Source of the DNA: Anaerohalosphaeraceae bacterium
GTDB taxonomy: Bacteria; Planctomycetota; Phycisphaerae; Sedimentisphaerales; Anaerohalosphaeraceae
Length of the DNA stretch: 15,232 nt
Direction: 5' to 3'
NCBI GenBank assembly: GCA_050309685.1
Contig: JBNRMP010000015.1
Span: forward strand, 1 to 15,232
This document shows positions 1 to 15,232 of the stretch, in pieces (the stretch's first letter is position 1; every line of letters begins with the position of its first letter). The translations under genes and the position numbers were made by a program. Under the pieces are notes generated by a model that had not been told where the DNA came from, made no database searches, and was given only the letters and a program-made list of their open reading frames with translations.

Positions 1-3000
1 CGTATCGTCTGGGAAGATCTGACCGACCATCTCAAGACGTTGTCCAGTGGAACGCAAATTGTCAAAGAGCTCGGCCGGCTGCTCATCGCCGCATAAAAAC
101 TATGAAAAAAGTCAGTCAAGTTGAGAAGCTTACCTGTTTTGTTTTTACTGAAGCTGTTTTCATTGAAGCGGTAGAGGGAAACTTCATATTGTTTGAACAA
201 TTCATTCGGATCTTCTCCGGCAAAAGATACCGTGGCCTGGGCAAAATCGATAGTAAACGTGCCCAGGTCCATATTTTGCCCGTCGGGAAAGTTGAACCTC
301 CCCAGTTCCACCCATCGTTCATGACCCTTCAAACCGGCAATTTCGAAAAAGAGGTATCGTGAGCCGGTCGGGATTCCACGGAAAACAAAACGGCCCGTTT
401 CATCGGTCCTTGCATAGGCCGTAAAGGCGGTTTCCCAGTTGCTCGGACTGCCCTTGATAAGCAGGTTGAGCTTGGGGACCGGTTGATTGTCCCGCAGAAT
501 CTTTCCTGTGACGGATGAAAGGCCGCCGAAATCCAGGCTCACGGCCCGATCCTTTTGCGGCAGAATTGATGTTGTTACCACGCCCAGTTTGTTGTCCGGG
601 TCTTCACGATAGCCGTAGCATAGGATTGGTGGCATCTTTTCAATCCAATAGTAGCCGCGGTGGTCGGTGATCACCTTTGCCAATCGGGCTCGCCCCTGCT
701 TCCAATAACTGTAGTCGCTTTCATCAAGAAAATAAAGCGGAGTATCGGGAAGGGGTAATCCGTTCTCATCATAGACGAATCCTTCAATTATGCCGCCTTT
801 GGAGAGGACGACCTGCACCTGCCTGAGGGCATTTCCCTCTGTGGTGATCTGCCGGGTCAGGAGGGCATAATCGGCGTGCTCAAACACGAGCCAGTGCCCT
901 GAAGAATCCTGCTGAAGATCGTTCAGAGTGAACCGACCCTCGGCGTCTGTAATGGCCGCCGGGCGGGAATCGCCCGGTTCATAGCGGAACCGGACCTTGA
1001 CCTCTGGTACGGGCAGACCCTCCTCATTCACAATCGTTCCCTCAATGATCCCATCGGCTTTTACCGGAGACATGGCAATCAGGGTCGGTTCATCGGCATC
1101 AGGCACCATTTCCGGGCTTGGGGTGTAAAAGTACCCTTCCGCTGTCAGCTCCACCCGGCGGCTTTCAGTTCCATACACTTCACAGGTAAATTCTCCCTGC
1201 GGATCTTCATAGGCGATCTGATTGACGGTGAACTTCTCAATGGGCAGATTCGTTTCCCTGTCGATTACCTTTCCCCTTAACACGGTTTGCTTTCTGGTTG
1301 GAATTTGCAAAACCAAGTTGTCCTGGGGAATCTCAATATTTTGAAATTTCATTTTGATCGGTTCACGATCGATCTCAAACGTATAAAGACCCGGCACCAT
1401 GTTCTTAATTTCAAATTCGGTTTTACCCTTTTCCACGTGAACATCATTACGGTTTCCATCGGCGCTGACAGCCCATATCCAAAATCCCGTAGGCGGGGGG
1501 GATCCCATGTATTGAATCGTTACTTTCTGGGTAACTCGCTGTGAGGGAGAAGCGTAAGGAATTGTGATCGCAATCAACCCTGAATCGGGCGGCAACGGTT
1601 CAAATGTGGACCAGATCCCGCTGAAACCAGTCTCCATAGGAACAAAGATTTCCAGTTTGTACTCGCCGGGCAGAATGTTTTTCAGTTCAAAGTAACCCTC
1701 CTGATCAATCGAAGAATGGGGGACACAATAAACGCTGTGCCACCAGGCAGGTTCAGGAGCGATTTTCCATCCGCCAGCGGGCAGGCCGTCTTCGCAAACC
1801 GCCCGGCCAAAAACAGAGATGCCCGGCTGAAGGATGAAACGAAGCTTCTTTTCCTGAAAATGCCTGTCGAATTTGATTTTCTGAAAGGCGGGCGCATATC
1901 CGTTGCCTGTTACGGTAACCTGATATTCTTCGGGTTTGAGCCCGCCGATGAACGCTTTTCCTTTCTCATTGGTTCGCACATCTCGTTTTGGGCCGCGGCC
2001 CACAATATCGGAAACGTACGCCGCATAGACTGAAAATTCCTTGAGGGGCTGGTTGTACTCGTTGACCACTTCCGCTCGGATCTTGCAGCCCTTTTGGAAT
2101 TGATAATGTCGGAAGGTCTGGGTATCCTTTTTCAACTGAATGGTTTCATTCGTATATCTCCATCTTTCAGGGGTAATATAAACAGGGGATTCAAATTCAA
2201 TTATGTAATCTCCATCCGCCTTAATATTCGCGAACCAGTACATTCCGTTTGGATCTGTTTTAGTATGTTGATAGTCATCATTGGGAGAGCAACTTATAGA
2301 GATCTCCAAATCGGCAATTGGCTCGAGTGTATTGACATCGGTGATGAGGCCGCTCAGGACGCCTCGGGGGGTGAACTGGTAGGGCTCAGGGGCAACGGTG
2401 GGTTGTATAGCGGGCTCCTTGAGCTTTGCGGGCGGCTGGGGTTTTGTTTGTTCTTCCACGGCCGCGATGGTTTTCAACTTTGCTTCGTTGATGATCGGAT
2501 CGACGGGCGCTTCCTGCGCTGGCACGGCAGCCGGCTGGGGCTGGGCGGTTGATTGTGGGCTTGCCGCATCCGTCAGGACCGCCTGCACCGGGGGAAGCGA
2601 CGCCGGTTCGGGGTGACTGAGATAGAACAGCAGGCCGGATGTGCCTAGGATCACGGCCGCAGCCGCGGCGGCAATCTTGAGTCCCACAGCGGTCCCGACC
2701 GATGCCGGCGTGGTCCCTGCCGCTGCCCCGGCAAAACCGGCCGGGCCCGTAGTCGTCGCCTCGGCCACGGCGGCGCTGCCGATGGCGATGGAGCCGACGG
2801 CCAGCATGACGGCTTTTGTGAAGCCGGCGCCCGGTTTGGACTTCTGCAGTCCGCGTTCGACCATGGCCTCGACCTCGGCCCTGAGCATCTGGCGGCCGCG
2901 ATGCAGGCGAACGCGGATCGTGGCCTCCTTTTCATCGAGCAGGTCGGCAACCTGCCGAATGGAGCGGTCCTCGCGATAGAAGAGGACGAGGGGGTCGCGG

Positions 3001-3416
3001 TACATTTCGGGGATCCGCATGAGCGCCTGGCTGATCATCGCTTCTTCCTCCCTGGAGATCAGAATTTCGGACGGCCCCGGCTGAGGGCAGGCAGAACCGG
3101 GGAGATCGTTGAGTCTGTCGGTGCAGGCGAGGGGTTCTCTCTTTTTTCGGCGATGATGATTAAGGATGACGCTGCGGGTGATGCTGCACAGCCACGACTT
3201 GAAGCGGGCGGCGTCCTGGAGCTGCGCCAAGCTGCTCCACGCCCGCACGAAGGCCTCCTGGGCCAGCTCCTCGCTGAGGTCGAGGCGGCCGACGGCGCTG
3301 TAGGTGAGGGAACAGACGAGGGATTTGTAGCGGCCCACCAGCCGCTCGAAGGCGCGGGGGTCGCCCCGGAGGCAGGCGGCGATCAAATCCGCCTCTGTGT
3401 GTCCGTTATCTCTCAT
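1..3416 (-). CDS. Partial CDS (C-terminus lies beyond the window start). It is a single-polypeptide ECF sigma-70 factor fused to a hydrophobic transmembrane segment, a Pro/Gln-rich linker, and at least eight CarboxypepD_reg-like (prealbumin-fold) beta-sandwich repeats.
   Basis: Hand translation of minus-strand frame 2 from the ATG at 3414-3416 to position 1 gives about 1138 codons with no stop. The frame was checked at anchor positions 5, 128, 848, 1508 and 2648. No frame-2 minus-strand ORFs appear in the provided track, which fits an ORF that leaves the window. GGAGG lies 6 nt upstream of the ATG. Residues 1-190 show ECF region 2 (...AFERLVGRYKSLVCSLTYSAV...AQEAFVRAWSSLAQL...FKSWLCSITRSVILNHHRRKKRE) and region 4 (...LVLFYREDRSIRQVADLLDEKEATIRVRLHRGRQMLR). 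About 60 hydrophobic residues follow (AVMLAVGSIAIGSAAV...LKIAAAAAAVILGTSGLLFYL). After that come repeated motifs of the form TDxxGxYxF and GRFxFxxIPxGxY, for example TDPNGMYWFANIKADGDY, TDAEGRFTLNDL and RTDETGRFVFRGIPTGSRY. Confidence 0.8.
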   Translation of the reverse strand, partial: MRDNGHTEADLIAACLRGDPRAFERLVGRYKSLVCSLTYSAVGRLDLSEELAQEAFVRAWSSLAQLQDAARFKSWLCSITRSVILNHHRRKKREPLACTDRLNDLPGSACPQPGPSEILISREEEAMISQALMRIPEMYRDPLVLFYREDRSIRQVADLLDEKEATIRVRLHRGRQMLRAEVEAMVERGLQKSKPGAGFTKAVMLAVGSIAIGSAAVAEATTTGPAGFAGAAAGTTPASVGTAVGLKIAAAAAAVILGTSGLLFYLSHPEPASLPPVQAVLTDAASPQSTAQPQPAAVPAQEAPVDPIINEAKLKTIAAVEEQTKPQPPAKLKEPAIQPTVAPEPYQFTPRGVLSGLITDVNTLEPIADLEISISCSPNDDYQHTKTDPNGMYWFANIKADGDYIIEFESPVYITPERWRYTNETIQLKKDTQTFRHYQFQKGCKIRAEVVNEYNQPLKEFSVYAAYVSDIVGRGPKRDVRTNEKGKAFIGGLKPEEYQVTVTGNGYAPAFQKIKFDRHFQEKKLRFILQPGISVFGRAVCEDGLPAGGWKIAPEPAWWHSVYCVPHSSIDQEGYFELKNILPGEYKLEIFVPMETGFSGIWSTFEPLPPDSGLIAITIPYASPSQRVTQKVTIQYMGSPPPTGFWIWAVSADGNRNDVHVEKGKTEFEIKNMVPGLYTFEIDREPIKMKFQNIEIPQDNLVLQIPTRKQTVLRGKVIDRETNLPIEKFTVNQIAYEDPQGEFTCEVYGTESRRVELTAEGYFYTPSPEMVPDADEPTLIAMSPVKADGIIEGTIVNEEGLPVPEVKVRFRYEPGDSRPAAITDAEGRFTLNDLQQDSSGHWLVFEHADYALLTRQITTEGNALRQVQVVLSKGGIIEGFVYDENGLPLPDTPLYFLDESDYSYWKQGRARLAKVITDHRGYYWIEKMPPILCYGYREDPDNKLGVVTTSILPQKDRAVSLDFGGLSSVTGKILRDNQPVPKLNLLIKGSPSNWETAFTAYARTDETGRFVFRGIPTGSRYLFFEIAGLKGHERWVELGRFNFPDGQNMDLGTFTIDFAQATVSFAGEDPNELFKQYEVSLYRFNENSFSKNKTGKLLNLTDFFHSFYAAMSSRPSSLTICVPLDNVLRWSVRSSQTI

Positions 3417-3423
3417 ATCGGGC

Positions 3424-3439
3424 CTCCTTTCGCATTATA
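3424..3439 (-). promoter_or_regulatory. Shine-Dalgarno GGAGG plus a perfect TATAAT hexamer immediately upstream of the sigma-fusion gene.
   Basis: The minus strand reads ...CCGAAGTATAATGCGAAAGGAGGCCCGATATG. GGAGG is plus 3424-3428 and TATAAT is plus 3434-3439. The -10 box sits only about 18 nt from the ATG, so any leader would be very short. No convincing -35 or ECF-type GGAAC/CGTC pair was found. Confidence 0.3.
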
Positions 3440-3593
3440 CTTCGGAATATGAGAAACCGACAGGGGAGAAAGGTTACAAGGGAGGGAAAAATTTTTGGCG
3501 AAAAGCGGGCTGGAAGGAGCCGTCGGCTTGCGTTGCAAACGCGCTGCCGCACGGTTTGCGATTTAAATAGGCGGCTGTCCCTGTTTTTATACC

Positions 3594-6500
3594 CTACGGT
3601 TTCTTCTTTTTGGCGGCGGGTTTGTCCGGGACGTCGGCGGGAAGGGCCGGCGTTTTGCCGGGCTCGAGCGGCGAGGCGTCGTAGCGCTCCTTGAGGGCGT
3701 TGATGAGCCGCTCGTAGCCGGCGATCATCTCCTCAAAGCGGGCGATGAGCATCCGGCAGTACTCCTTGCGGTCGGCATCGGAGCGGCGGACGGGGGTGAG
3801 CCACATCTCCATGGTCCTGAACTGCTCCTCCATGACGGAGGAGAGCGTGTGGAGGTTCTGCTGCTGAAGGGCGGAGCGGATCTGCTGCTCGGAATCGGTC
3901 TGAAAGCGGATGCTCTCGATCACCTGGTTCATGCGGTCGAGGATTTCGCGGCCGATGGTTTGGACGGGATCGTCGGCTTTCGGGGTTGCCGCCGTTTTGA
4001 GGCCGTCGGCGAGCGCATCCTTGATGGATTCGAGGCCCGCGTTCATGCCGTTGAGCTGGCGGATCAGCTTGCCGATACGGTCCTCGTCGTCGGCGCCGAG
4101 GAGCTTGTTGCGGGCGAAGGTCTTCTTGATGTCGGCCCAGCGCTGCGCCTCGGTCTCGCTCAGGCGGCCGGTGAGCTCGCGGAACTTGAGCAGGCTGGCC
4201 TCCGCGCCGCTCGCGAGGGTCTGGGCGTCCTGTTCGTAGTTGGAGAAGATCAGCGTCCAGAGCTCGCGCTCGTTCATAACCGGCAGGACGCCGGCGGCGA
4301 TGCGGTTCATGTTGCGATACGACCCCTGGAGCAGGAAGGGCGGCTCGGTGCGGTACTCATCGGCCTGGGCGGCGGAGAGGATGTACTGCCGATTGACTTT
4401 CAGCACGACCTCGCGGACGACGAAAAGCTTCTTCATGACGGCGACATATTCTTCGAGCTCGTCGGCCCCGTAGGCGCCCTCGAAATCGATGCCGTCCTTT
4501 TGGCCGGTCTCGGCGAGTTTCATGACGGCATAGACGTCGGCCTGGCTGCGGCGGGCGAGCGATTCGAGGACGGGATTGGAGGTCAGGGCGTTCTCGATGT
4601 AGCTGCTCATGAACGCGTCGTAGTTGTCGCCGACGATGTCGCCGATGTTATAGATGTCGGCGCGGTTGCTGAGCATGTCGGGGATCTTGAACTTTTCGCC
4701 GCTTTCGGTATAGGGGTTGCCGGCCATGACGACGCAGACGCGCTTGCCGCGGAGGTCGTAGGTGCGCGGGCGGCCCTCGTGGATGCCCTCGATTTTGCGC
4801 TGGGCGTCGCACAGCGAGATGAACTTCTGGAGGAACTCGGGGCTCGTGTGCTGGATGTCGTCGATATAGATCATCACGTTGTCGCCCATCTCGAAGGAAA
4901 GGTTGAGCTTTTGGATTTCCTCGCGGGCGGCGGCGTTGGGGGCCTCGGCGGGATCGAGCGAGATGACCCGGCGGCCCAGCGCCGGGCCGTTGATCTTGAC
5001 GAAGGTGAGCCCCAGCCGGTTGGCGACGTACTCCATGAGCGTCGTCTTGCCGTAGCCCGGCGGCGAGATCAGCAGCAGCAGGCCCTGGCGGTCGGTGCGC
5101 TTGGTCTCATCGGCCGTGCCGATCTGTTTGGCGAGGTTGGCGCCGATGAGGGGCAGGTAAACCGTGTCGATGAGCTTATTGCGGACGAAAGTGCTCATGA
5201 CGCGCGGCTGGAACTGGTCGAGGCGGTAGCGCTGGGCGAACTCGTCGATACGCCGCTTCTTGCAGTCGCGGAAGGCGACGAAGCGAGGAACGACGTGCTT
5301 TTCGTGGTGCGTGAGGCGATGGATAAAATTGCAGAGGTTCAGCGTGTACGTGCCCTTCGCGATTGTCGGGTGATCGCTCCGGAGGCCGTCCAGGCGGCGC
5401 TCGACCGACTGTCGGACGATGCGGCGGTCGGCGGCGGGCTCCATGAGGGCGACGGCGGCCTCATGGATGACGCCGGGGTCGGGGTCGAGACCCTCTTTAT
5501 TCTGGTACGAGTGCAGGGCCGCGCAGAGCAGGTCGAAGGCGCCGGCGGGGTCGTCGGCGAGGGCGTCGAGCGAGGTCTGAAGCTGTTTTTCGAAGCCGTT
5601 TTGCGCGAGATGGGCGCGGAAGGAATGGGCCAGGTCGGCGGCGGGGCCGCTGAGAATGAAGGAGTCGCCGAGGGCAAGCTCCTCGAAGAGATATTCGGCG
5701 GCGAACTCGAGTTGGCCGTCAAGCAGGCGGCCGGATTGCCTGGCGAAGACCTCCAGCGGTCCCATGAGCTGGGCCGGGAAGTCCTCGCGGCCGCGGTCGG
5801 CGTCAAAGAGAGTGCGAACAACGCCGGCGCCGCGGATGCGGGCGGCAAGCCGCCCCTTGTCCTGGAGCGGGCAGAACCAGTTCCAGAACAGCCGGGCCGC
5901 CGCGCGAACCTGCGGCGCAAAGCGGAGCAGGTCGATGACGTCGTAGAGATCGCAGAGGGCGTCGAGCAGCCGGACGGCATCGGCGTCGTGGACGCCCTTG
6001 ATGTAGCCCTCCTCGAAACGCGGCCCCATGAAGGTCTGCACGGCGGCGAGCTTGGCTTCGGGGCTCTGCCGCAGCCAGGCGGGACCGCGGACGGCGAACT
6101 GTTCGCGAATGGGTTTGAACATCTGCCAGGCAAGATACTCCGCGCGGCTGACGGCGGGGCTTTCGGAAGGCCGTTCGAGGTTCCACAGGTCGGCAGCGCT
6201 GACGATCTCCTCGTCCTCCAGCGGCTGGAAGAGGCCCGTGCCCGCGAGATGGTAAAACATCCGCCCCTCACGGCAGACGACAGCGCCTTCGAGGGCCTGG
6301 CGGTTGACGGAGAAGCGGTAACTGCCGAGGCGGATGATGCTCTCGCCGTCCTCGTAGAGGGCTTGCCTGTCCTTGAGCTGGCGAACGGCGTCCTGCCGGA
6401 GCGTTTTCAGGCGGCCCTTGACGTCCTCGGCCTTGACCGAGTCGCCCAGGTCGGTCAGTTGGGCAATCGTCTCGCGAATGCGCTCGACCATGCGGTCGGC

Positions 6501-8897
6501 GGAGAAAAAGCCGTTGATCTCATCGACGGTTTTCAGGGCGCGGACGCGGGTCTCGATGCCCTTGAGGATTCGCTCGGCGGCGGTCATCAGGGCGGCGGCC
6601 TTCTGGTTCTGCCGCTCAACGAGGGCGATCTTGCGGGACTCGAAGGCGTTGTAGATCTCCTCGCGCTTGTCGGCAAGGCGGACGATGAACTCGTCGAAAT
6701 CGGCAAAGCGGCCCTCGAGCGTTTCGATCTGGAGTGCGGACTTGGTCAGATACTCCTCGCACTTGGCGGGGCTGTCGCACAGATCGAGGAAGCTGATGAC
6801 GGACTGTTCGAGGAGCTTGAGCTGGGAGGCGAATTCGGCCTGCCCCTCCTCGCGGGCAAGGTCCTTCGTGCGGCCGGTGACGGCGGCCTTGGAGCGGTTG
6901 ACAAGGGCGTAGACCCTCGAGATGTTCTCGACGATGGCGGCGGTCTGCACGGCGTCTTCGATCTTCAGGTTGCTGACGACGTCGGCGAGCAGCTCCAGTT
7001 CGCCGGCGGTCCGGGCGATCTGCTCCAGACGCTCTTTGCACTCGGTAACCTTCTTCAGGTTTTCGACGGCGTCGCCGAGGGCGGCCGCCTTGACCTCGTA
7101 GGGCCGCAGGGCATCGTCGCGCAGGAGAAACTCCACGCACCCGGCGGAGAGCGTGTCGGTGTGTTCGGCGGTTTGCGTTTCGAGGGCGTCGATCTGCTCC
7201 AGGTCAGCGTAGCGCAGGTCACGGAGGGAGATGATGCGGCCGCGAAGGGTCCGCAGCTCCGCCAGGCGGCTGACGTACTGGCTGACCTCGGTGAGCGAGT
7301 GATAGTTGATGGCGGCGATGCTCTTTCGGACCTCGTCCCGAACCTCGGCAATCTGCCGGCGGGTGTTTTCGCGGGTGCGGACGACCTTTTCGTATTCCTC
7401 CATGGCCGCGGCGGCCGCCTTACGGATCTCCTCCAGCTCAGCGGCGAGGTTGTGCGTCTCCTCCTCGCCGATCCAGAAGTAGGAGTCGCGGATGTCCTGG
7501 GCCTTCCGGGAGATATCGAGGTAGAGATTCAGGTAGGAGTCCTCTTTGTCGATGAGCCGGAGCAGTTCGGTGCACTCGGCCATGCAGCGGACGATGCTCT
7601 TGTTGCCGATCTTGTAGAGCGGCGAGTCGCTCCTGGCCTCAACGACATGGTCGGGGTGGCAGAAGGGCGTCTTCCAGACCTGGATGACATGGTGCTTCTG
7701 GGCCTGCCCGTCGGCGCGGAAACAGATGAACGTGCCGTCCGCGAACGAGCAGAAGCCGTTGCAGACCAGCGGAACGGCCATCTCCATCCGGATGATGTTG
7801 TAAAAGAGCAGGACGTAAACGCCCGAATCCCGGTTGTAGAAGATGTAGAAAAAGTCCTCGCCGTTGGGCGAGTCGAGCCGCTTCTCGAAGACCATCTGCT
7901 CCATGTCGGTCTCGAACTGCTTGAGCTGGCCCGACTGGAGGTAGTAGCCCTTGGGAAAGACCAGGCCGTGGCCCTCGGGCAAAAGGACGCAGGCGTCGCG
8001 GATCGAATCGATACGGACGGCCGTCTGCGTTTTTTCATTGTAGAGAATGTAGCGAAACGCCGTCTCCTGGTAGGGTCGGATCTTGAGGAGGATCAGGTTG
8101 GCGATGATCGAGTAGTAGATCTCGGCGTCGCTGAGCGTCTGGTCGGGGTCGTCCACGGGCTCGGCGTAGATGCCTTCGCCGGTCTCGGTGTTGTCCTCGA
8201 TCTTGATGGTCAGGTCGCCGCCGACGGTCTCGACGAAGACGCGGTCTTCGATGGAGATGTGGGGGTGAAGGCCGCTGCGGTGCATGTCCTGCGTGACGCG
8301 GGTCCACTCGAACTGGTGCTGCGGGGGAAAGCAAAACTCGTGGTCGCTGCGGTTGTCGAGGTATTCGAGCTTATTGCCCCGGATGAGCCACTTGAAGGTT
8401 TTGATGTCGTCGATGTTCTTGCCCGTGCGAAAGATCATGAACAGGTGACTGCCGAGCACGGCGAACTTGGCGAAGCGGGTGTGGCGGTAAAACCGGTAGA
8501 GGTTGAAGAAGTCGCCGCGAAACCGCTCATCGTCGATCAGGTCGAGCGGGCAGGGCCGAAAGGCGCCGTCCTCAAACCGGTAAATCGCGAAGACGTCGGC
8601 GGGGGCCGTCTCATTGCGCAGGCCGACGAAGACGTTGTAGCCGAAGATGAAGTGGTTACCGACGGCGATGATGTCGCGGGGAACGCAGTTGTTCTCGGTG
8701 GAGATGCGTTCGCTGGCGAGGAGCCGGTTTTCCACCGCGCCGAAGACCGCCTTGCGGTCGGCGTTGAGCGATTCGAGTTTGCCCCGAAGGGCGTCGGCAT
8801 GGGCGTTGAGCCGCTTGCGGATGACCTCATAGGTCCCGCCCTCAAGCACAACCGGCTCGGCGGAGGCGCCGGGTTTTGACTGATCCTGTCGTTCCAT
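3594..8897 (-). CDS. Giant 1767-aa multidomain protein. It has about 450 aa of N-terminal beta-rich sequence, about 500 aa of coiled coil, a helical region, one AAA+ ATPase module of the MoxR/AAA_5 (dynein-related) type, a C-terminal helical region, and a poly-Lys tail. Its function is unknown.
   Basis: Complete ORF from ATG (8895-8897) to TAG (3594-3596). Walker A LLLLISPPGYGKTTL is at plus 5037-5069, about aa 1277. Walker B VMIYIDDIQH is at plus 4848-4880, about aa 1343. A sensor-1-like RVCVVMAGNPYTESGEKFKIP segment follows. Residues ~480-950 are heptad-like and rich in E, R, K, A and L. The protein ends ...PAAKKKKP. Codon usage is rich in GC at third positions, like the neighbouring genes. 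The antisense 1676-aa frame is low complexity and carries no motifs. Confidence 0.9.
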   Translation of the reverse strand: MERQDQSKPGASAEPVVLEGGTYEVIRKRLNAHADALRGKLESLNADRKAVFGAVENRLLASERISTENNCVPRDIIAVGNHFIFGYNVFVGLRNETAPADVFAIYRFEDGAFRPCPLDLIDDERFRGDFFNLYRFYRHTRFAKFAVLGSHLFMIFRTGKNIDDIKTFKWLIRGNKLEYLDNRSDHEFCFPPQHQFEWTRVTQDMHRSGLHPHISIEDRVFVETVGGDLTIKIEDNTETGEGIYAEPVDDPDQTLSDAEIYYSIIANLILLKIRPYQETAFRYILYNEKTQTAVRIDSIRDACVLLPEGHGLVFPKGYYLQSGQLKQFETDMEQMVFEKRLDSPNGEDFFYIFYNRDSGVYVLLFYNIIRMEMAVPLVCNGFCSFADGTFICFRADGQAQKHHVIQVWKTPFCHPDHVVEARSDSPLYKIGNKSIVRCMAECTELLRLIDKEDSYLNLYLDISRKAQDIRDSYFWIGEEETHNLAAELEEIRKAAAAAMEEYEKVVRTRENTRRQIAEVRDEVRKSIAAINYHSLTEVSQYVSRLAELRTLRGRIISLRDLRYADLEQIDALETQTAEHTDTLSAGCVEFLLRDDALRPYEVKAAALGDAVENLKKVTECKERLEQIARTAGELELLADVVSNLKIEDAVQTAAIVENISRVYALVNRSKAAVTGRTKDLAREEGQAEFASQLKLLEQSVISFLDLCDSPAKCEEYLTKSALQIETLEGRFADFDEFIVRLADKREEIYNAFESRKIALVERQNQKAAALMTAAERILKGIETRVRALKTVDEINGFFSADRMVERIRETIAQLTDLGDSVKAEDVKGRLKTLRQDAVRQLKDRQALYEDGESIIRLGSYRFSVNRQALEGAVVCREGRMFYHLAGTGLFQPLEDEEIVSAADLWNLERPSESPAVSRAEYLAWQMFKPIREQFAVRGPAWLRQSPEAKLAAVQTFMGPRFEEGYIKGVHDADAVRLLDALCDLYDVIDLLRFAPQVRAAARLFWNWFCPLQDKGRLAARIRGAGVVRTLFDADRGREDFPAQLMGPLEVFARQSGRLLDGQLEFAAEYLFEELALGDSFILSGPAADLAHSFRAHLAQNGFEKQLQTSLDALADDPAGAFDLLCAALHSYQNKEGLDPDPGVIHEAAVALMEPAADRRIVRQSVERRLDGLRSDHPTIAKGTYTLNLCNFIHRLTHHEKHVVPRFVAFRDCKKRRIDEFAQRYRLDQFQPRVMSTFVRNKLIDTVYLPLIGANLAKQIGTADETKRTDRQGLLLLISPPGYGKTTLMEYVANRLGLTFVKINGPALGRRVISLDPAEAPNAAAREEIQKLNLSFEMGDNVMIYIDDIQHTSPEFLQKFISLCDAQRKIEGIHEGRPRTYDLRGKRVCVVMAGNPYTESGEKFKIPDMLSNRADIYNIGDIVGDNYDAFMSSYIENALTSNPVLESLARRSQADVYAVMKLAETGQKDGIDFEGAYGADELEEYVAVMKKLFVVREVVLKVNRQYILSAAQADEYRTEPPFLLQGSYRNMNRIAAGVLPVMNERELWTLIFSNYEQDAQTLASGAEASLLKFRELTGRLSETEAQRWADIKKTFARNKLLGADDEDRIGKLIRQLNGMNAGLESIKDALADGLKTAATPKADDPVQTIGREILDRMNQVIESIRFQTDSEQQIRSALQQQNLHTLSSVMEEQFRTMEMWLTPVRRSDADRKEYCRMLIARFEEMIAGYERLINALKERYDASPLEPGKTPALPADVPDKPAAKKKKP

Positions 8898-8910
8898 TAT
8901 CTCTCTGTGA

Positions 8911-8953
8911 TTTTTAAAAAAGGTGCCTGCCGGCAGGCGCGGCCGCCGGCAGG
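8911..8953 (-). terminator. Candidate intrinsic terminator or attenuator on the minus strand, between the flotillin stop codon and the start of the giant gene.
   Basis: A perfect 14-nt palindrome GCCTGCCGGCAGGC lies at 8925-8938. A second arm, GCCGCCGGCAGG (8942-8953), allows a 9-bp stem (CCUGCCGGC / GCCGGCAGG) in the minus-strand RNA. The hairpin is followed by ACC and UUUUUU (plus A-run 8916-8921). Immediately downstream the minus strand reads TAAAAAT, a -10-like element, then CACAGAGAGATA and ATG. Confidence 0.5.
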
Positions 8954-8960
8954 GGCGCGT

Positions 8961-10985
8961 TTATGCCTTCAGCGTTCGGGTGGTCGTATCCTCCAGCGTC
9001 AGGCCCAAACTCTCGGCGGGGTGATCCGCCAGGCCCAGGCCTTTGACCGTCTCAAGGAGGCGACCCAGCAGGTTATGATCCTTCTTGCTCGCCTTGCTCA
9101 TCAGCTTCATGACGAGGGCGGAGATCGTCAGGTTCTTCAAATCCTCGCTGGTCATGCCGAACTGGGAGACGAACTGGCGAATCTTCGCCTTGGTCTCCTC
9201 GTGGCCGCCGTCGAAGAACGTCTGCTTGACATCGGTGAGAATGCGGCTGTTATCGATCATCCGGTCCACGCTCTTGCCGGTGGTGATGGAGTTGACCAGC
9301 CGGTTGAAGAACTCCCCGTCGCCGCCGACGATGTCGATCTTCGCGGACTTGAGCGCCTCGGCGAGAATGAGGGCCTGCTGCTCGGCGATATCCTTCTGGA
9401 TGCCGATCCGGGCCAGCTCGATGTCCTTTTCCTTGTTGAGCTCGAGCTTGAATTCCTCGTGTTCCTTGCCGACGGCGTCGAAGATCTTCATGGCCTCGGC
9501 CTTCTCGCGGATACCCTCGGCCTCGGCATTGAACTTGCGCGACATAACGGTCGCTTCGGCCGTGCCCTGCTTCTCGACGGCCAGGGCCTTGGCCTCCATG
9601 ACCTCCGCTTCGGCCATGCCGGCGACGGCGTGCTCCTTGACCTGGGCGGCGGCAATCGTCTTCTTGGCCTCGGCGTTCTTCTTCGACGCATCCAGGTTGG
9701 CCTGAGCCTCGATCAGCGCCTGCTCGGCGTAGAATTCGGCCGACTTCTTCGACGCCTCGGCGGCCTTGATGTCTTTGACGAGGGCCTGCTCGGCCTGCTC
9801 CTCAGCTCGGATGATCGCGACCTTCTTCTGGCGGTCAGCCCCGGCAAACTCGCGCGTATCCTTGATCCGCTCTTCCTCGGCCACGACGGTCTTTTCGACC
9901 ATGATGCGCTCGCGGATGTTGTTTTGCAGTTCCTTGCGTTTCTCTTCGACGGCCTTGTCCTTCTCGACCTGGGCGATGGTGACGAAACGCTCGCGCTCGG
10001 TGGCCTCAAGCTGACGGTCGCGGGCGACGCGCTCCTGCTCGACGCCGTCGGTCCGCTCCTTGTTGCGGGCGGCGACGATGATCTGACGCTGCTTGTTCTC
10101 CTCGGCGACCTGGATCTCCTCCTCGGCGGCGATGCGGGCCTTCTCGGCCTTCTCGCGTTCGGCCGCCTGGATCTTCTTCGTCTCGGCCTCCTCGCGGGCC
10201 TGGACAGAGGCGACCTCCCGCTTCTGCTTGGCCTCGGCCTCGGCGAGCTGACGGTTGAGTTCGAGGATGGCCTCCTGTGCCTCGACGTTCTGCTGGGTGA
10301 TCGTCTTGTCCTTTTCGCGCTCGCGGGCGTTGGCAAGCTCAAACTGCTCGGCCGTCAGGACGGTGATCTTCTTGATGCCCTCGGCGTCGAGGATGTTGTC
10401 CGGGTTGAGCAGCTTCTTTTCGGTCTGTTCGAGGTAGTCGATGGCGGCGTCCTCGAGGACGTAGCCGTTGAGGTCGGTGCCGATGACCTGGAGAATCTCC
10501 TCCTTGAACTCCACGCGGGAGGTATAGAGCTGGGCGAAATCGAACCGCTTGCCGACGGTCTTGAGGGCCTCGGAGAACTTGGCGTCGAACAGCGTGTACA
10601 GCGCCTGCTCGTCCGACGCCCGCTTGCACCCCAGCGCCTGGGCGACCTTCTTGACGTCCTCCGCCGTATTATTCACCCGCACGAAGAACGCCACCACGAT
10701 GTCCGCCCGCAGGTTGTCCTTGCAGATGAGCCCCTGGGCCCCCCGGCGGTCGATCTCGATCCGCTTGACCGAGATATCCATGTACTCGATGCGGTGGATG
10801 ATCGGCAGGACGATCATGCCCGAGAAGCTGACCCTCGTGCCTCCCATGCCGTTGCGGATCAGCGCCTCGCCCTGCGACACCTTGCGGTAGAAGGACGAGA
10901 TAAACGCCAGGATCAGCAGCGGAAGAACAATAATCAGAATAAACAGAATTCCTGCAATCGCTGCGCCGGGTACTGCTGCTAACAT
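8961..10985 (-). CDS. Flotillin-family SPFH (band-7) protein of the YqiK/FloT type. It has an N-terminal transmembrane helix, an SPFH domain, and a long coiled coil rich in Glu, Ala and Lys.
   Basis: 674 aa. The N-terminus AAVPGAAIAGILFILIIVLPLLILAFISSFY is hydrophobic. The SPFH signature is GEALIRNGMGGTRVSFSGMIVLPIIHRIEYMDISVKRIEI...CKDNLRADIVVAFFVRV...LNPDNILDAEGIKKIT, the same pattern as in E. coli YqiK. About 320 aa of E/A/K/R-rich coiled coil follow (AEAEAKQKREVASVQAREEAETKKIQAAEREKAEKARIAAEEE...). The start ATG (10983-10985) lies 3 nt after the NfeD stop, and a GGAGAC RBS sits inside the NfeD 3' end. Confidence 0.92.
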   Translation of the reverse strand: MLAAVPGAAIAGILFILIIVLPLLILAFISSFYRKVSQGEALIRNGMGGTRVSFSGMIVLPIIHRIEYMDISVKRIEIDRRGAQGLICKDNLRADIVVAFFVRVNNTAEDVKKVAQALGCKRASDEQALYTLFDAKFSEALKTVGKRFDFAQLYTSRVEFKEEILQVIGTDLNGYVLEDAAIDYLEQTEKKLLNPDNILDAEGIKKITVLTAEQFELANAREREKDKTITQQNVEAQEAILELNRQLAEAEAKQKREVASVQAREEAETKKIQAAEREKAEKARIAAEEEIQVAEENKQRQIIVAARNKERTDGVEQERVARDRQLEATERERFVTIAQVEKDKAVEEKRKELQNNIRERIMVEKTVVAEEERIKDTREFAGADRQKKVAIIRAEEQAEQALVKDIKAAEASKKSAEFYAEQALIEAQANLDASKKNAEAKKTIAAAQVKEHAVAGMAEAEVMEAKALAVEKQGTAEATVMSRKFNAEAEGIREKAEAMKIFDAVGKEHEEFKLELNKEKDIELARIGIQKDIAEQQALILAEALKSAKIDIVGGDGEFFNRLVNSITTGKSVDRMIDNSRILTDVKQTFFDGGHEETKAKIRQFVSQFGMTSEDLKNLTISALVMKLMSKASKKDHNLLGRLLETVKGLGLADHPAESLGLTLEDTTTRTLKA

Positions 10986-10988
10986 AAT

Positions 10989-11669
10989 TTAGGTCTCCAT
11001 ATTCAGGGGGGCGATCAGATAGACTCCGCGGGCATCATCCCGGCCGACGATCACGGCTTCATCCCCTTTATGAAAGACGCGGTCGTCGGCGGACATTACG
11101 TTTAACAGGATGGGCGAGCCGTTGGTGGTAATTTCGGCCTGGCCCAGTTTCTTCGATACTTTGGTGGTCGTGACCCGGCAAACCTGCCCGATGAGGGGGC
11201 GGGACGCCTCGATGCTGCCGTCGAGGCCGGTAAACACCCGGGTGATGGGAATGATGACGATTTTGGTGATGCCGCAGGCGATCATAAAGGCGGGCAGGGC
11301 AATCACAAAGGCCAGCGGCAGGGAGTTGTTCGGATTGAAATAATAGTTGCCCAGCACGGCCAGCAGCCAGAGATTCAAAAAGAGAACGCTCAGGACGATC
11401 ATGAACGGAACCCGGCCGAGCGAGAAAAATTCGGCCGCGGCCCGAAACAGCCCCGAAACCCCGGCGCCGTCCGCACCGACATCGATATCCGCGTCCACAT
11501 CCACATCCCCGTCGAGATCGATGCCGACATCGCCGTCCAGGTCCAGGTCAAAGGTATTGAGATCGAGAAGCCCCAGGAGCACGGTGAGCCAGTAGAGCAT
11601 CATCAGAAGCAGCATCAGGGTGAAAAAGAGGTTCACCGGCTCGAAGGCATAGTGGATCAGTTCGACCAT
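10989..11669 (-). CDS. NfeD-like (YqiJ-like) membrane protein. It has N-terminal transmembrane helices, an Asp-rich DxD repeat loop, further transmembrane helices, and a C-terminal OB-fold NfeD domain.
   Basis: 226 aa. The N-terminus is hydrophobic (FFTLMLLLMMLYWLTVLLGLL). An acidic stretch follows: DLNTFDLDLDGDVGIDLDGDVDVDADIDVGADGAG. More transmembrane sequence follows (FMIVLSVLFLNLWLLAVL...AFVIALPAFMIACGITKIVIIPI). The C-terminal beta-rich tail is GQVCRVTTTKVSKKLGQAEITTNGSPILLNVMSADDRVFHKGDEAVIVGRDDARGVYLIAP. AGGAGG lies 8 nt upstream of the ATG. Gene order and stop-start coupling to the flotillin mirror the E. coli yqiJ-yqiK operon. Confidence 0.85.
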   Translation of the reverse strand: MVELIHYAFEPVNLFFTLMLLLMMLYWLTVLLGLLDLNTFDLDLDGDVGIDLDGDVDVDADIDVGADGAGVSGLFRAAAEFFSLGRVPFMIVLSVLFLNLWLLAVLGNYYFNPNNSLPLAFVIALPAFMIACGITKIVIIPITRVFTGLDGSIEASRPLIGQVCRVTTTKVSKKLGQAEITTNGSPILLNVMSADDRVFHKGDEAVIVGRDDARGVYLIAPLNMET

Positions 11670-11801
11670 GGCCGATCCTCCTTGCGACGGAAACTGAGCC
11701 GAATGTCCGGGCTGCGTTTCAAGAGTTCTCCTTTTTCTCCGGGATTGCCTGCATTACCGCTCCTGTTTGTCGTTTGACCTGAGGCAGGGAATCCGCCCGG
11801 C

Positions 11802-11830
11802 AACCTACCCGCTCGACCGCGTTTTGTCAA
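11802..11830 (-). promoter_or_regulatory. Candidate sigma-70 promoter for the nfeD-flotillin operon, with a leader of about 125 nt.
   Basis: The minus strand reads TTGACA (plus 11825-11830), a 17-nt spacer AAACGCGGTCGAGCGGG, then TAGGTT (plus 11802-11807). The -10 hexamer matches the T1, A2 and T6 positions of the consensus. The site lies in the 303-bp gap between the yjbQ stop and the nfeD start. Confidence 0.35.
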
Positions 11831-11972
11831 CAAATTTTCTCGTTTATCCGACTCCATATTCCGGCTCTCTCACCCCTATAGAAAGGCCGGCGAGTCTTTT
11901 TGTTACACTGAACTTTGTGCAAAATCGTTATTTTGTTTTTTGAGTAATTCTCTCACTGATCCTGCGGTTTTT

Positions 11973-12389
11973 TTACTCCGGGTCGGGGCAGAAGTGGAGG
12001 AGGCATCGGCGGGAGCGGGGGCCGTCGAACTCGCAGAAGTAGATGCCCTGCCAGGTCCCCAAAACGAGGCGGCTGTCCTCGATGAGGACCTGTCGGGTGC
12101 AGCCGAACAGCGAGGACTTGACATGGGCGTCGGAATTGCCCTCGCTGTGGCGATAGCCGGGGGCGCCCTGGGGGATGAGCTTATTCAGGGCCAGGAGGAT
12201 GTCATGGATCACATCGGGGTCGGCGTTTTCATTGATGGTGACGGCCGCCGTGGTGTGGGGGATGTGGATGGTGACGACCCCGTTGCGAACGCCGGACTCT
12301 CCCAGGGCGGTCCGGATCGAGTCGGTGATGTCGATCATCTCCTCGCGGCGACGAGTGGATACGGTCAGCGTCTTGCGATGTACCTTCAT
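11973..12389 (-). CDS. yjbQ: YjbQ/UPF0047 family protein (annotated in databases as a secondary thiamine-phosphate synthase).
   Basis: 138 aa. It shows the family hallmarks MKVHRKTLTVSTRRREEMIDITD...GVVTIHIPHTTAAVTINENADPDV...HSEGNSDAHVKSSLFG...LGTWQGIYFCEFDGPR. A strong RBS, AAGGAG, lies 5 nt upstream of the ATG at 12387-12389. Confidence 0.9.
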   Translation of the reverse strand: MKVHRKTLTVSTRRREEMIDITDSIRTALGESGVRNGVVTIHIPHTTAAVTINENADPDVIHDILLALNKLIPQGAPGYRHSEGNSDAHVKSSLFGCTRQVLIEDSRLVLGTWQGIYFCEFDGPRSRRCLLHFCPDPE

Positions 12390-12455
12390 TTTGTCTCCTT
12401 TTTCTCCGAATTATTGTTTGTCCCTTATTGTAGCGAAAAGGGGGAGAAAGGAAAT

Positions 12456-12545
12456 ATGCTTGAATGCTTGGAACTGTGTTTTTTCGATGGAATGATTAAG
12501 GATATTCCGGATATGGGGGATTTGGGCAAATATGTTACAGGTTAA
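12456..12545 (+). other. Speculative small ORF of 29 codons in the divergent intergenic region. It could be a leader or precursor peptide, or a chance frame.
   Basis: GGGGGAGAAAGG lies 5-6 nt upstream of the ATG at 12456. The peptide is MLECLELCFFDGMIKDIPDMGDLGKYVTG. Its codons end in A/T, unlike the GC3-rich host genes. It lies 57 nt upstream of the diiron-protein gene. Confidence 0.2.
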
Positions 12546-12601
12546 TTTTTGAAAGTAGAGAAAGGATCGTCAACAACTCAGATTATTGGGAAGGAGCAAT
12601 T

Positions 12602-13825
12602 ATGGGCTTTGATCCGTTAAAAGAAAAGGGCATCCCCCTGGAAAATCAGTTTCGAAACTGGAGCGAGCTGGACATCCGGCCGTACAACAAAAAGGATGTC
12701 CACCCGTACACCCGTACCCGCATCATCCTGATGAACGGCATCGAGGTCGAGGGGGCGCTGTTCAAGCACCAGTTTGCCCGGCACTCGGACAATATGGAGC
12801 TCAAGCAGGAGTTGGCCGCCACTCGCCGGATTGAGCAGCAGCAGCAGAAAATGATCAACTGGTTCTCGCCGGGCGATGAATCGCCGCTGGAGACGACAAT
12901 CGGCTACGAACAGGTGGCGGTGGACCTGACGGCCTGGCTGGCGCGGACCGAACCCGACCCGCTGGTCAAGGATGCGCTGGATTTCGCCCTGATCGAGGAT
13001 TTCGACCACCTGTACCGGTATGCGAATCTGCTGGAGATGACCGAGGGTAAGCAGGCCCAGTCCATCACTCGCGACCTGACGGAGATCATGCCGGGGCGAC
13101 CGACCGAACGGGAGCATCGCCACCCGTTCGATTCGCCGATCGGGCATGTCAGCCTGCCCGTCGCCGACATCCTGACGCTCATGCATATCCAGACAATCGT
13201 CTCCGCCGAGCAGCAGACGATGAATTACTACATGAACGTGGGCAATCAGTTGGGCACGATGGCAGGGCGGGGGCTCTACCAGGAGATCGCAATGATCGAG
13301 GAACAGCACGTTACCCACTACGAGTCGCTGATGGACCCGAACGCGACCTGGTTTGAGCGGTGTCTGCTGCATGAGTACAACGAGTGCTACATGTATTATT
13401 CCTGCATGCAGTCGGAGGAGGACCCCCGGATCAAACGGTTCTGGCAGGAATGCCTCGACCAGGAGATCACCCATCTGCACATGGCGGCGGCCAATCTCAA
13501 GCGGTACGAGGACAAGGACCCGCGGCAGTTCCTGCCGGAGGAGTTTCCGACGCTGACGGTCTTCCAGTCCAACAAGAACTACATCCGCGATGTGCTGGCG
13601 ACGCAGATCGATCTGACCAAGGCCGACCTGGAATACAAGCCGGTGGACGATCTGCCGCGCGATCACCGGTACTTCAAATTCCAGCGAATCGTCAACGAGG
13701 GCGGCGTGCCCAGTCACCAGGTGATCGAACAGAATATCCGGAAGGCCGGTCGGGACTATCGTCTTGAGACGCAGGGAGAGCACCCGGTTGAGCGTTACCG
13801 CAGCCGCAAGACCGTCGAAGTGTAA
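12602..13825 (+). CDS. Ferritin-like diiron-carboxylate superfamily protein, a putative oxygenase, oxidase or hydroxylase of unknown specificity.
   Basis: 407 aa. AAGGAG lies 6 nt upstream of the ATG. The C-terminal half carries two canonical E...ExxH sets: SAEQQTMNYYM...IEEQHVTHYESL and LHEYNECYMYY...DQEITHLHMAA. The N-terminal half carries a degenerate set: GYEQVAVD...IEDFDHLYRY. The antisense 467-aa frame is low complexity. Confidence 0.8.
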   Translation: MGFDPLKEKGIPLENQFRNWSELDIRPYNKKDVHPYTRTRIILMNGIEVEGALFKHQFARHSDNMELKQELAATRRIEQQQQKMINWFSPGDESPLETTIGYEQVAVDLTAWLARTEPDPLVKDALDFALIEDFDHLYRYANLLEMTEGKQAQSITRDLTEIMPGRPTEREHRHPFDSPIGHVSLPVADILTLMHIQTIVSAEQQTMNYYMNVGNQLGTMAGRGLYQEIAMIEEQHVTHYESLMDPNATWFERCLLHEYNECYMYYSCMQSEEDPRIKRFWQECLDQEITHLHMAAANLKRYEDKDPRQFLPEEFPTLTVFQSNKNYIRDVLATQIDLTKADLEYKPVDDLPRDHRYFKFQRIVNEGGVPSHQVIEQNIRKAGRDYRLETQGEHPVERYRSRKTVEV

Positions 13826-13851
13826 CCGATCGGCTGACAGCAAAGGGCGGC

Positions 13852-14163
13852 ATGCAACTATCCGTGCCGGCAAATTATGGGCTCGCCCGACTGCGGCTGC
13901 CGGCAAAGCCGGCCCGGATGCAGGGGATGATGGCCCCGATGAAGGAGCGGCCGATCCGGATCGACGCGGCGAAGATCCCGGCGGATTTTTTGGAGCGGAT
14001 CGAACGCGCCGGCTGCACACAGCGCGATTGCGCCGACTGCGGAATCTGCGGTCAGGTCGCCGGGGAGGCAGTAACGATTGACAAGGCGTTTCGCGATCAC
14101 GTGCCGGCGGGATATGGTGAAGCGGAAGAATCCATTTTGACGGGACGGCTCTGGGATGTTTAA
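13852..14163 (+). CDS. Small protein of up to 103 aa with a compact Cys knuckle (Cx4CxxCGxCG). It may bind metal (Zn or Fe).
   Basis: It contains the motif GCTQRDCADCGICGQ. Its stop codon TAA (14161-14163) overlaps the ATG (14156-14158) of the downstream methyltransferase (ATGTTTAAG), which indicates translational coupling. The start codon is uncertain. Alternative in-frame ATGs occur about 66-84 nt downstream of 13852. Confidence 0.55.
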   Translation: MQLSVPANYGLARLRLPAKPARMQGMMAPMKERPIRIDAAKIPADFLERIERAGCTQRDCADCGICGQVAGEAVTIDKAFRDHVPAGYGEAEESILTGRLWDV

Positions 14164-14884
14164 GTCACGCGCTACGGAAACGGAATGGCTGGACCGGCCC
14201 GACGGAGATGAGGACCTGGTTCGCCGCAGCCACTCCCTCATGCGGACGGTAAACCGCTGCTTCGGAGGGACGCGCCGGGTCCGCTGTTTTCTCCGCCGGC
14301 AGATTTCCCGCGGACGGCCCCATGAGGAGATTCGTCTGCTGGACATCGGCTCGGGAAGCTGCGATATCCCGATTGCCCTGGCGCTGTGGGCCCGGCGGGA
14401 GGAACTGGCCCTGCGGATAACCTGTGTGGAGCGAGACGCGAGGACGCTGGACGCAGGCCGGGCGGCGGTGGAAAAGACCGGGTGTCCCTCGATCCGGCTT
14501 GTCCATGGAGACATCTTCGTCTGGCAGCCGGAGGAGACGTTCGATGTTGCCGTCGGTTCGATGTTCTTCCATCACCTGACCGATCGGCAGATCGTGCGGC
14601 TGATCCGACGTCTGCGGTCCTTTGTCCGCCGGGGGGTGTTCATCAACGACCTGTGCCGGACCCCGATCACCTACGCGGGCGGGGTCCTGCTAACGGCGGC
14701 GGCTGACCGGGAGGTCCGCCGGGATGCGCTGCTGTCCATCCGCAAGGGATTCCTCCGGGAGGAACTGGTAACGCTGCTGAGCCGGATCGAGAACGCCTCG
14801 GTAAGCGTGGAGAATCACCATTTCGGGCGGATCACCGCCTGGGTCGAATTTCTGGCGGGAGGCATTGATGCGAACGAAAAGTAA
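14156..14884 (+). CDS. Class I SAM-dependent methyltransferase.
   Basis: 242 aa. Motif I is LLDIGSGSCDIPIALA. An acidic residue after beta-2 is present (ITCVERD). Motif II is VHGDIF...FDVAV. Motif III is GVFIND. The N-terminal ...EWLDRPDGDEDLVRRSHSLMRTVNRCFGG segment is typical of Rossmann-fold methyltransferases. Confidence 0.85.
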   Translation: MFKSRATETEWLDRPDGDEDLVRRSHSLMRTVNRCFGGTRRVRCFLRRQISRGRPHEEIRLLDIGSGSCDIPIALALWARREELALRITCVERDARTLDAGRAAVEKTGCPSIRLVHGDIFVWQPEETFDVAVGSMFFHHLTDRQIVRLIRRLRSFVRRGVFINDLCRTPITYAGGVLLTAAADREVRRDALLSIRKGFLREELVTLLSRIENASVSVENHHFGRITAWVEFLAGGIDANEK

Positions 14885-14885
14885 A

Positions 14886-15130
14886 AATCAAAGATAAAAT
14901 AGCAAAATTGAGGACGGCTTCGCCGGGCTGATTTAGTTGGGATACATGCCATTTAACCCGGTCCGGGATAAGAGAAAAGTCAAAAGGTAGAGGTAAAAGG
15001 GCAAAATTGAGGACGGCTTCGCCGGGCTGATTTTGTTGTGATACATGCCATTTGGCCCTGTCGGGGACAAAAAAAGCAAAAATTAAAGGTAAAAGGGCGA
15101 AATTGGGCTGAAAATGCGGTTTTCTGAGGT
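14886..15130. repeat. Tandem intergenic repeat with a unit of about 97-99 bp and 2.3 copies. The third copy is degenerate and lacks 14 nt.
   Basis: Unit 1 begins at 14902 and unit 2 at 15001. The core GCAAAATTGAGGACGGCTTCGCCGGGCTGATTT.GTTG.GATACATGCCATTT..CCC.GTC.GGGA is about 92% identical over roughly 70 nt. Each copy is preceded by GGTAAAAGG. Unit 3 begins at 15097 (GCGAAATTG-GGCTG...). Confidence 0.75.
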
Positions 15131-15150
15131 TTTTATCCGTAAAAATACCT

Positions 15151-15232
15151 ACCTGAAACGACCAAAAACGACCAAAAACGACACGAAAAAGACGCGAAAC
15201 GACATGGTTTCGACACGAAATGACAAGGGGTA
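15151..15232. repeat. Helically phased short direct repeats (CGAC plus an A-tract, period about 10-11 bp, 6 copies) together with a 6-bp inverted repeat. The array is cut by the window edge.
   Basis: CGAC occurs at 15159, 15169, 15179, about 15190, 15200 and 15211, separated by A-rich runs (CGACCAAAAA twice, CGACACGAAAAAG, ACGCGAAA, CGACATGG). The inverted repeat is CGAAAC-gacatg-GTTTCG (15195-15212). A single DnaA-box-like sequence, TTATCCGTA, lies at about 15133-15141. Confidence 0.6.

Follow-up and report, generated by a model that had tools for sequence, protein, structure and literature searches.

Bacterial operons that join a flotillin gene to the gene of a large ATPase are known from both computational and experimental work. 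Ravi et al. (mSystems 2024; preprint 2020; PMC11237479) reported an operon of CesT/Tir-PspA, a band-7/flotillin protein and a novel AAA+ ATPase with a beta-propeller, to which a protein with three transmembrane segments typified by YqiJ/YuaF and sometimes a PLD hydrolase also belong. The same work included an abbreviated form of the operon without CesT/Tir-PspA, and ATP-dependent sub-membrane remodelling was predicted as its function (PMC11237479). In Pseudomonas aeruginosa, Wallart et al. (PMC10948618) found by reverse transcription PCR (RT-PCR) that bacABCDEF (PA3732-PA3727; PA14_16140-16200) is a single operon, co-transcribed across every junction. All products of the bac operon were increased 6- to 13-fold in a bacA mutant, and the phenotypes reported for the operon concern biofilm, rhamnolipid and virulence (PMC10948618). 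PA3728 (bacE) is also one of the genes listed as mutated in three or more studies of cystic-fibrosis adaptation. Here we analyzed a stretch of 15,232 nucleotides (nt) from an Anaerohalosphaeraceae bacterium (contig JBNRMP010000015.1, positions 1 to 15,232), referred to as the window, which carries a yqiJ-like gene, a flotillin gene and the gene of a 1767-residue AAA+ ATPase. The window is an additional planctomycete instance of the operon type described above, and its three-gene cassette is an abbreviated, PspA-less form of a widespread bacterial envelope module.

The three genes lie consecutively on the minus strand, each with an ATG start in the list of open reading frames (ORFs): the yqiJ-like gene (10989-11669, 226 residues), the flotillin-like gene (8961-10985, 674 residues) and the giant ATPase gene (3594-8897, 1767 residues). 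The coordinates, common orientation and stop/start geometry given for them in an initial annotation, made from the letters of the window, agreed with both the ORF list and the sequence. At the first junction (10983-10991, minus strand, TAA-att-ATG) the stop codon of the yqiJ-like gene (TAA, 10991-10989) is separated by a 3-nt spacer (att) from the flotillin ATG (10985-10983), and the ribosome-binding site of the flotillin gene (GGAG) is embedded in the last codons of the yqiJ-like gene, 9 nt before that ATG. The corresponding gap ranged from -8 to +5 nt in 17 related loci, mostly from Planctomycetota, Kiritimatiellota and Bacteroidota. Judged from this geometry, the yqiJ-like and flotillin genes are translationally coupled. 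The flotillin stop codon (8963-8961) is followed by a 63-nt spacer (8898-8960) and the ATG of the ATPase gene (8897-8895).

One of the closest known systems is the bac operon, in which bacC-bacD-bacE corresponds to the trio of the window in the same order and orientation. The genomic context in P. aeruginosa reads DUF2170, PspA_IM30, a 213-residue protein, a 688-residue protein, a DUF3686/DUF7902/AAA protein and PLDc_2, and this context together with the identity to the window proteins establishes bacE as the gene of a DUF3686 protein. The initial annotation knew of no characterised trio of this kind; this statement no longer holds, since the operon is contained in Ravi et al. (PMC11237479) and bacC-bacD-bacE are co-transcribed (PMC10948618). 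Unlike the bac operon, the cassette of the window comes without bacA (DUF2170/CesT-Tir-like), bacB (PspA) and bacF (PLD), and its host is a Phycisphaerae-type planctomycete. No sigma-54 promoter like that of the bac operon was found upstream of the cassette. Neither the window nor the 18-kb contig L090 contained genes for CesT/Tir-like proteins or PspA, so the cassette does not have the full form of the Ravi operon. It has the abbreviated one, with flotillin, YqiJ/YuaF protein and AAA+ ATPase, and no substantive difference from it was seen; structural models bore out the beta-propeller and the single AAA+ module of that class. The first two genes are also homologous to, and in the same order as, E. 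coli yqiJ-yqiK and B. subtilis yuaF-floT, but in E. coli K-12 no ATPase gene follows yqiK, and sibD/ibsD are found there instead.

When the sequences of the small protein and the flotillin were searched directly against Pfam, NCBIfam, PADLOC and PDB, nothing or marginal matches were returned. Because of this, homology was shown by way of E. coli YqiK and YqiJ and of sets of orthologues. A profile of 45 orthologues of the small protein aligned with E. coli YqiJ at an hhalign probability of 96.9% (E=1.8e-10, 179 aligned columns). The Pfam family YqiJ_N was matched by 19 of these 45 orthologues and the NfeD C-terminal domain by 4, while the window protein itself matched YqiJ_N only at E=0.011. 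Its top profile match in PDB was the soluble OB domain of YuaF (2k14), at a marginal E value of 0.046. BLASTP gave 25% identity to BacC over 216 residues (E=2e-15). The protein has about three hydrophobic segments, with transmembrane-like stretches at residues 10-39, 78-111 and 114-147, an acidic D-rich loop and a C-terminal OB-like domain. As expected for a short NfeD protein, its gene stands immediately 5' of, and coupled to, an SPFH gene, an order kept in 63 of 67 loci. By homology, the small protein is a YqiJ/YuaF-type short NfeD-like membrane protein and an orthologue of BacC.

BLASTP aligned the middle protein with E. coli YqiK, annotated as a flotillin family inner membrane protein, at E=5e-49 and 31% identity over 424 residues, in an alignment running from residue 1 through the SPFH domain and the Ala/Glu/Lys-rich helical region, and with BacD at 53% identity over 470 residues (E=9e-152). 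An N-terminal hydrophobic anchor (residues 1-37) is followed by the SPFH domain and by an extended helical stretch rich in Ala, Glu and Lys, and the C-terminal domain is conserved. Its orthologues are annotated as 'flotillin family protein' or 'SPFH domain-containing protein'. No Pfam family, including Band_7 (PF01145), was matched by the window flotillin even at E<=10, and Band_7 was matched by only 2 of 40 full-length orthologues (best E value 2e-12). The failure of Band_7 reflects limited sensitivity of the model for the YqiK subfamily and is not evidence against homology. The sole PDB match of the flotillin profile was the helical region of QmcA (E=7e-4). These comparisons identify the middle protein as a YqiK-type flotillin, orthologous to BacD/PaFlo3 of P. 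aeruginosa. With the YqiK and YqiJ alignments, the proposal that the first two genes form a yqiJ/yqiK-type pair was borne out.

The giant protein, which the initial annotation could not place in a named family, matched Pfam DUF3686 at E=4.5e-182 (residues 37-474, profile positions 2-448 of 448), followed by DUF7902 at residues 595-678 and by AAA, AAA_22 and AAA_5 around residues 1270-1400. Pfam describes DUF3686 as 'ATPase involved in DNA repair'. Two database searches each recovered more than 5000 homologues, named 'DNA repair ATPase' at NCBI and 'MoxR-like ATPase' at JGI, and among the matches listed all homologues (120 in each search) shared the layout of DUF3686, DUF7902 and a single C-terminal AAA+ module in about 1600-1900 residues. 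The N-terminal domain family comprises 732 clusters at 50% identity. The window protein is an orthologue of BacE (PA3728 / PA14_16190), with 41% BLASTP identity over 1627 residues, and BacE has the same architecture. In P. aeruginosa, the 'DNA repair ATPase' forms one 90%-identity cluster with 3222 member sequences.

An AlphaFold2 model of residues 1-485 of the giant protein (pLDDT 88, pTM 0.86) contained a long helix, an all-beta part at 58-410 and C-terminal helices. With this model Foldseek returned solely beta-propellers (such as WD40, Kelch and Vps18), at low TM-scores and at most 12% identity. The N-terminal domain, as modelled, is a propeller without a close solved relative. The N-terminal helix (residues 20-52) and the predicted beta-propeller (about 58-410) are followed by a helical region that includes DUF7902, a less conserved region (1000-1200), a predicted MoxR-like AAA+ module (about 1240-1600) and a poorly conserved C-terminal tail within the last 170 residues, ending in KKKKP. 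The initial annotation had spoken of a very long coiled coil. This was partly wrong, as residues 60-410 are modelled as the beta-propeller and not as coiled coil. At residues about 416-900, helix-forming residues are abundant and Pro and Gly scarce. A crude test of heptad periodicity gave no sustained signal in residues about 416-900, and likewise none on the helical region of the flotillin, so that it does not discriminate.

The AAA+ module was the most conserved part of the giant protein among 39 full-length orthologues, in all of which Walker A K1284, Walker B D1346-D1347, the sensor-1 residue N1394 and the arginine-finger residue R1412 were invariant. The motif 'NP..E..G....IPD.L.NR' was recognised in it by eye. 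A model of residues 1190-1610 (pLDDT 88) showed a beta-hairpin between Walker B and sensor 1, a feature shared with the MoxR family (CbbQ, NorQ, RavA), which also provided the best structural matches. The top Foldseek matches were CbbQ (6l1q) and NorQ (9qh4-9qh9), with E values of about 1e-6 to 1e-7 and TM-scores of 0.54-0.63 (normalised to the target), and MCM and RuvB came next. By sequence, only the Walker A region resembled solved proteins (p97/VAT). No transmembrane-like segment was found in the giant protein by a scan for hydrophobic segments. The invariant catalytic residues, the MoxR-like fold of the model and the lack of a transmembrane segment indicate that the ATPase is likely active and cytoplasmic. 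As initially proposed, the third gene encodes an AAA+ protein that is not a protease.

An alignment of diverse DUF3686 domains was used to scan one genome per species, and neighbouring genes were called with the window proteins as tblastn queries. Relatives were present in at least 598 species genomes, and the tblastn counts refer to the best 80 loci, which span Planctomycetota, Bacteroidota, Verrucomicrobiota, Kiritimatiellota, Desulfobacterota, Acidobacteriota, Omnitrophota and Sumerlaeia. Of the 69 loci whose DNA extends 2.3 kb or more upstream of the ATPase gene, 67 had a flotillin-like gene there on the same strand, and a YqiJ-like gene preceded the flotillin gene in 63 of these 67. Further upstream, a PspA gene was present in 31 and a CesT/Tir-like chaperone gene in 30 of the 63 loci with enough upstream DNA. 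The module was also seen in 13 plasmid records. When nine plasmid or chromid loci were examined (Hymenobacter, Pseudomonas fluorescens pQBR103, two Streptomyces, Deinococcus, Vibrio, Proteus, Halomonas and Nonomuraea), the flotillin-ATPase order was kept in all nine at 35-55% identity. At least eight phyla share this gene order, which persists at identities as low as 35%, and the genes are almost obligately linked. The pairwise identities of the flotillin were correlated with those of the ATPase (Mantel r=0.80, 0 of 2000 permutations), which fits inheritance as a unit. The initial annotation had suggested a conserved co-oriented cassette and had named a lack of flotillin or NfeD association among the homologues as evidence that would speak against it. 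The association proved strong, and this objection fails decisively.

Several additional observations were made at the related loci. Unrelated ORFs are inserted at the flotillin-ATPase junction in Bacteroidota and Desulfobacterota, among them DUF559 endonuclease-like, DUF3592, DUF3784 and AbiEii toxin genes (e.g. L034:9341-9898, L033:9563-9937, L069:9203-9952 and L020:8715-9383), and three loci (L011, L072 and L030) have 2.4-5.3 kb of extra genes there. The junction appears to be a permissive insertion site. In 16 loci, including L092:13260-13952, L085, L027, L071, L064, L043 and L046, a PLD-family gene (BacF-like, PLDc_2) stood no more than 10 kb away from the ATPase gene. The placement of these genes varied, being downstream in Pseudomonas and Vibrio and upstream, often divergent, in Bacteroidota. 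On P. fluorescens pQBR103 (L002, 1031-8875) the trio stands directly 3' of a complete yjfI-yjfJ(pspA)-rhomboid-DUF2491-DUF350-DUF1190-glutathionylspermidine-synthase-like block, a co-oriented array that unites two PspA operon classes kept separate by Ravi et al.

A function can be proposed for the third gene. Flotillin and the YqiJ-like protein would form a membrane-attached SPFH scaffold at the cytoplasmic face of the inner membrane, like the scaffolds whose structures have been determined for other pairs of SPFH and NfeD proteins. The soluble giant protein would oligomerise through its single MoxR-like AAA+ module, and its long helical arm and beta-propeller would reach the scaffold, which might then be remodelled, assembled or disassembled at the expense of ATP. 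In the longer operons the ATPase may also act on the co-encoded, ESCRT-III-like PspA polymer, or on clients held by the scaffold. We lean slightly towards this view, in which the ATPase spends energy on remodelling the flotillin/YqiJ scaffold and, in operons that encode it, PspA. The suggested logic would be analogous to that of Vps4/ESCRT-III or of FtsH with HflK/C. The likeness to HflK/HflC-FtsH lies in an SPFH scaffold paired genetically or physically with an AAA+ machine at the inner membrane; it was put forward in the initial annotation and is used here as an analogy only. FtsH is a membrane-anchored AAA protease of the classical clade, whereas the ATPase of the window is soluble, has a MoxR-like fold and a beta-propeller in the models, and lacks a protease domain.

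A number of points weigh against a role of the ATPase as scaffold remodeller. Among the papers found, no experiment or structure ties the ATPase physically to the flotillin. The yqiJK pair of E. coli K-12, which has no ATPase, indicates that the scaffold can work alone, and deletion of paFlo3 (bacD) in P. aeruginosa lowered biofilm by about 20% with no other phenotype (PMC13086221). Two loci (L053 and L083) have a full-length DUF3686 ATPase gene with no flotillin-like gene within 10 kb and 2.7 kb upstream, respectively. In several lineages the flotillin-ATPase junction has taken up genes unrelated to the cassette, so the two proteins do not require tight stoichiometric coupling. Shared species phylogeny alone could yield the Mantel correlation. 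The AAA+ module also departs from the MoxR family in being embedded in a protein of 1767 residues, in having DD rather than DE at Walker B, and in its company. MoxR ATPases usually pair with a protein carrying a VWA domain, and no such partner was found among the genes of the window or in the P. aeruginosa operon. The ATPase is for this reason regarded as MoxR-like in fold and not as part of a canonical MoxR system.

The spacer between the flotillin and ATPase genes (8898-8960, minus strand, 63 nt) contains the strongest terminator-like site of the window, which the initial annotation had not mentioned. A hairpin (8953..8926) with an 11-bp stem, including 9 G-C pairs, is followed there by TTTTTT. 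This could mean that in the window strain transcription terminates at 8926-8953 and that the ATPase gene is silent or independently expressed, uncoupled from the flotillin pair. We consider this unlikely. The distance from the T-run to the ATG of the ATPase gene is only about 20 nt, too short for a promoter after the hairpin, and the ATPase gene must, on this reading of the spacer, be reached by read-through from upstream. The 5.3-kb ORF is intact and its protein is 100% identical in several independent contigs. Moreover, the long stem is an indel variant. In two public contigs with 99.8% identity to the window (L090 and L091, of which one stems from Logan and the other from JGI), the spacer measures 47 nt and contains just a 12-nt palindrome and the T-run; a 16-nt indel, the sole gap in an alignment of 14.8 kb, converts this palindrome into the 11-bp terminator-like stem. 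In P. aeruginosa the equivalent junction is transcribed through (PMC10948618), and pQBR103 of P. fluorescens also has a terminator-like hairpin at this junction.

The hairpin was also considered as a conserved regulatory element, and this was rejected. Terminator-like hairpins were present in 9 of 49 related spacers (10-400 nt in length), and the closest relatives have spacers of 27-28 nt without one. This frequency and the absence from the closest relatives show that the hairpin, polymorphic within the population, is not conserved in the cassette. Its effect would at most be to tune the amount of ATPase relative to the scaffold proteins. A structured spacer would, where present, lower ATPase output in comparison with theirs.

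A second alternative is that the cassette is an anti-phage or abortive-infection system, in which the scaffold senses damage to the envelope during infection and the ATPase serves as effector or sensor. The frequent location of the module on plasmids and megaplasmids, its link to the phage-shock protein PspA, the nearby PLD genes, which encode a common defence effector fold, and the toxin-antitoxin or endonuclease-like genes (AbiEii, DUF559) inserted in the operon in some lineages would all suit such a role. Beyond generic AAA and coiled-coil similarity, however, no cassette protein matches a PADLOC model. In P. aeruginosa the operon is chromosomal, single-copy and species-wide, unlike patchy defence islands, and the phenotypes published for it (PMC10948618) concern biofilm, rhamnolipid and virulence. 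A defence function is judged improbable.

It is very improbable, and already disfavoured, that the giant protein is an SMC/Rad50-like ATPase of DNA repair or chromosome partitioning to which the membrane genes are merely adjacent, for besides the database names this idea can draw on weak PADLOC matches to the SMC-like LmuB (residues 476-850, E=0.016-0.064), a weak RuvB_N match, RuvB and MCM among the fold matches and a LexA-family regulator gene 600 nt upstream of the operon in Hymenobacter, but the module is AAA+ with a MoxR-like fold and not an ABC/SMC head, the similarity to RuvB and LmuB is limited to the P-loop or to helical low-complexity regions, no SMC/Rad50/ABC, nuclease, helicase or DNA-binding domain was detected in the giant protein by domain-library scans, and the near-obligate gene neighbours, which encode membrane proteins and PspA, never include repair genes. 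The name 'DNA repair ATPase' is most likely a misnomer.

Returning to the ATPase as a remodeller of the flotillin/YqiJ scaffold, a more specific arrangement can be tentatively suggested, which we regard as possible but on balance doubtful. A ring of the DUF3686 protein, built through the MoxR-like AAA+ module, might dock on the cytoplasmic dome of the YqiK/YqiJ cage through its helical arms and propellers, and as a non-proteolytic counterpart of FtsH in HflK/C or of Vps4 on ESCRT-III it might open, disassemble or load the cage under envelope stress. A literature search on DUF3686 found no paper, and searches on YqiK/YqiJ and on flotillin with MoxR or AAA+ found no mechanistic or structural study of the complex.

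The genes around the cassette were also inspected. Downstream of the ATPase gene, positions 1-3416 (minus strand, running off the left end and hence absent from the ORF list) encode a protein that is 1329 residues long in gene calls on contig L090, with extracytoplasmic function (ECF) sigma-70 regions 2 and 4 fused to CarboxypepD_reg-like repeats. Positions 1-2500 have a GC content of 48-55%, and the cassette (8961-11669 and 3594-8897) has one of 59-69%. Upstream, 303 nt from the cassette and in the same orientation, lies a YjbQ-family gene (11973-12389, minus strand, 138 residues). Membership of the operon was weighed for the YjbQ gene and for the ECF-sigma fusion gene and rejected for both, as these neighbours are not conserved. 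Beyond the YjbQ gene, the cassette is followed on its upstream side by a divergent gene (12602-13825, plus strand) for a 407-residue protein with no Pfam family and a weak EncB/ferritin-like NCBIfam match (E=0.008), and then by a gene for a class I S-adenosylmethionine-dependent methyltransferase (14156-14884, plus strand; PRK06202-like, E=1e-41). Rfam and tRNA scans of the window were empty.

We know of no clear biochemical function for bacterial flotillins and NfeD proteins so far. The analysis of the window links bacE and the PSP-linked operon of Ravi et al. with the name DUF3686/'DNA repair ATPase', and adds the MoxR-like fold predicted for the AAA+ module as well as counts for the linkage to the flotillin gene. 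At least 598 species genomes, that of P. aeruginosa included, have this operon type, in which a flotillin is coupled to a giant ATPase of its own. If the docked ring exists, it would give bacterial flotillins a defined energy-dependent partner, and their long-debated function would become directly testable.

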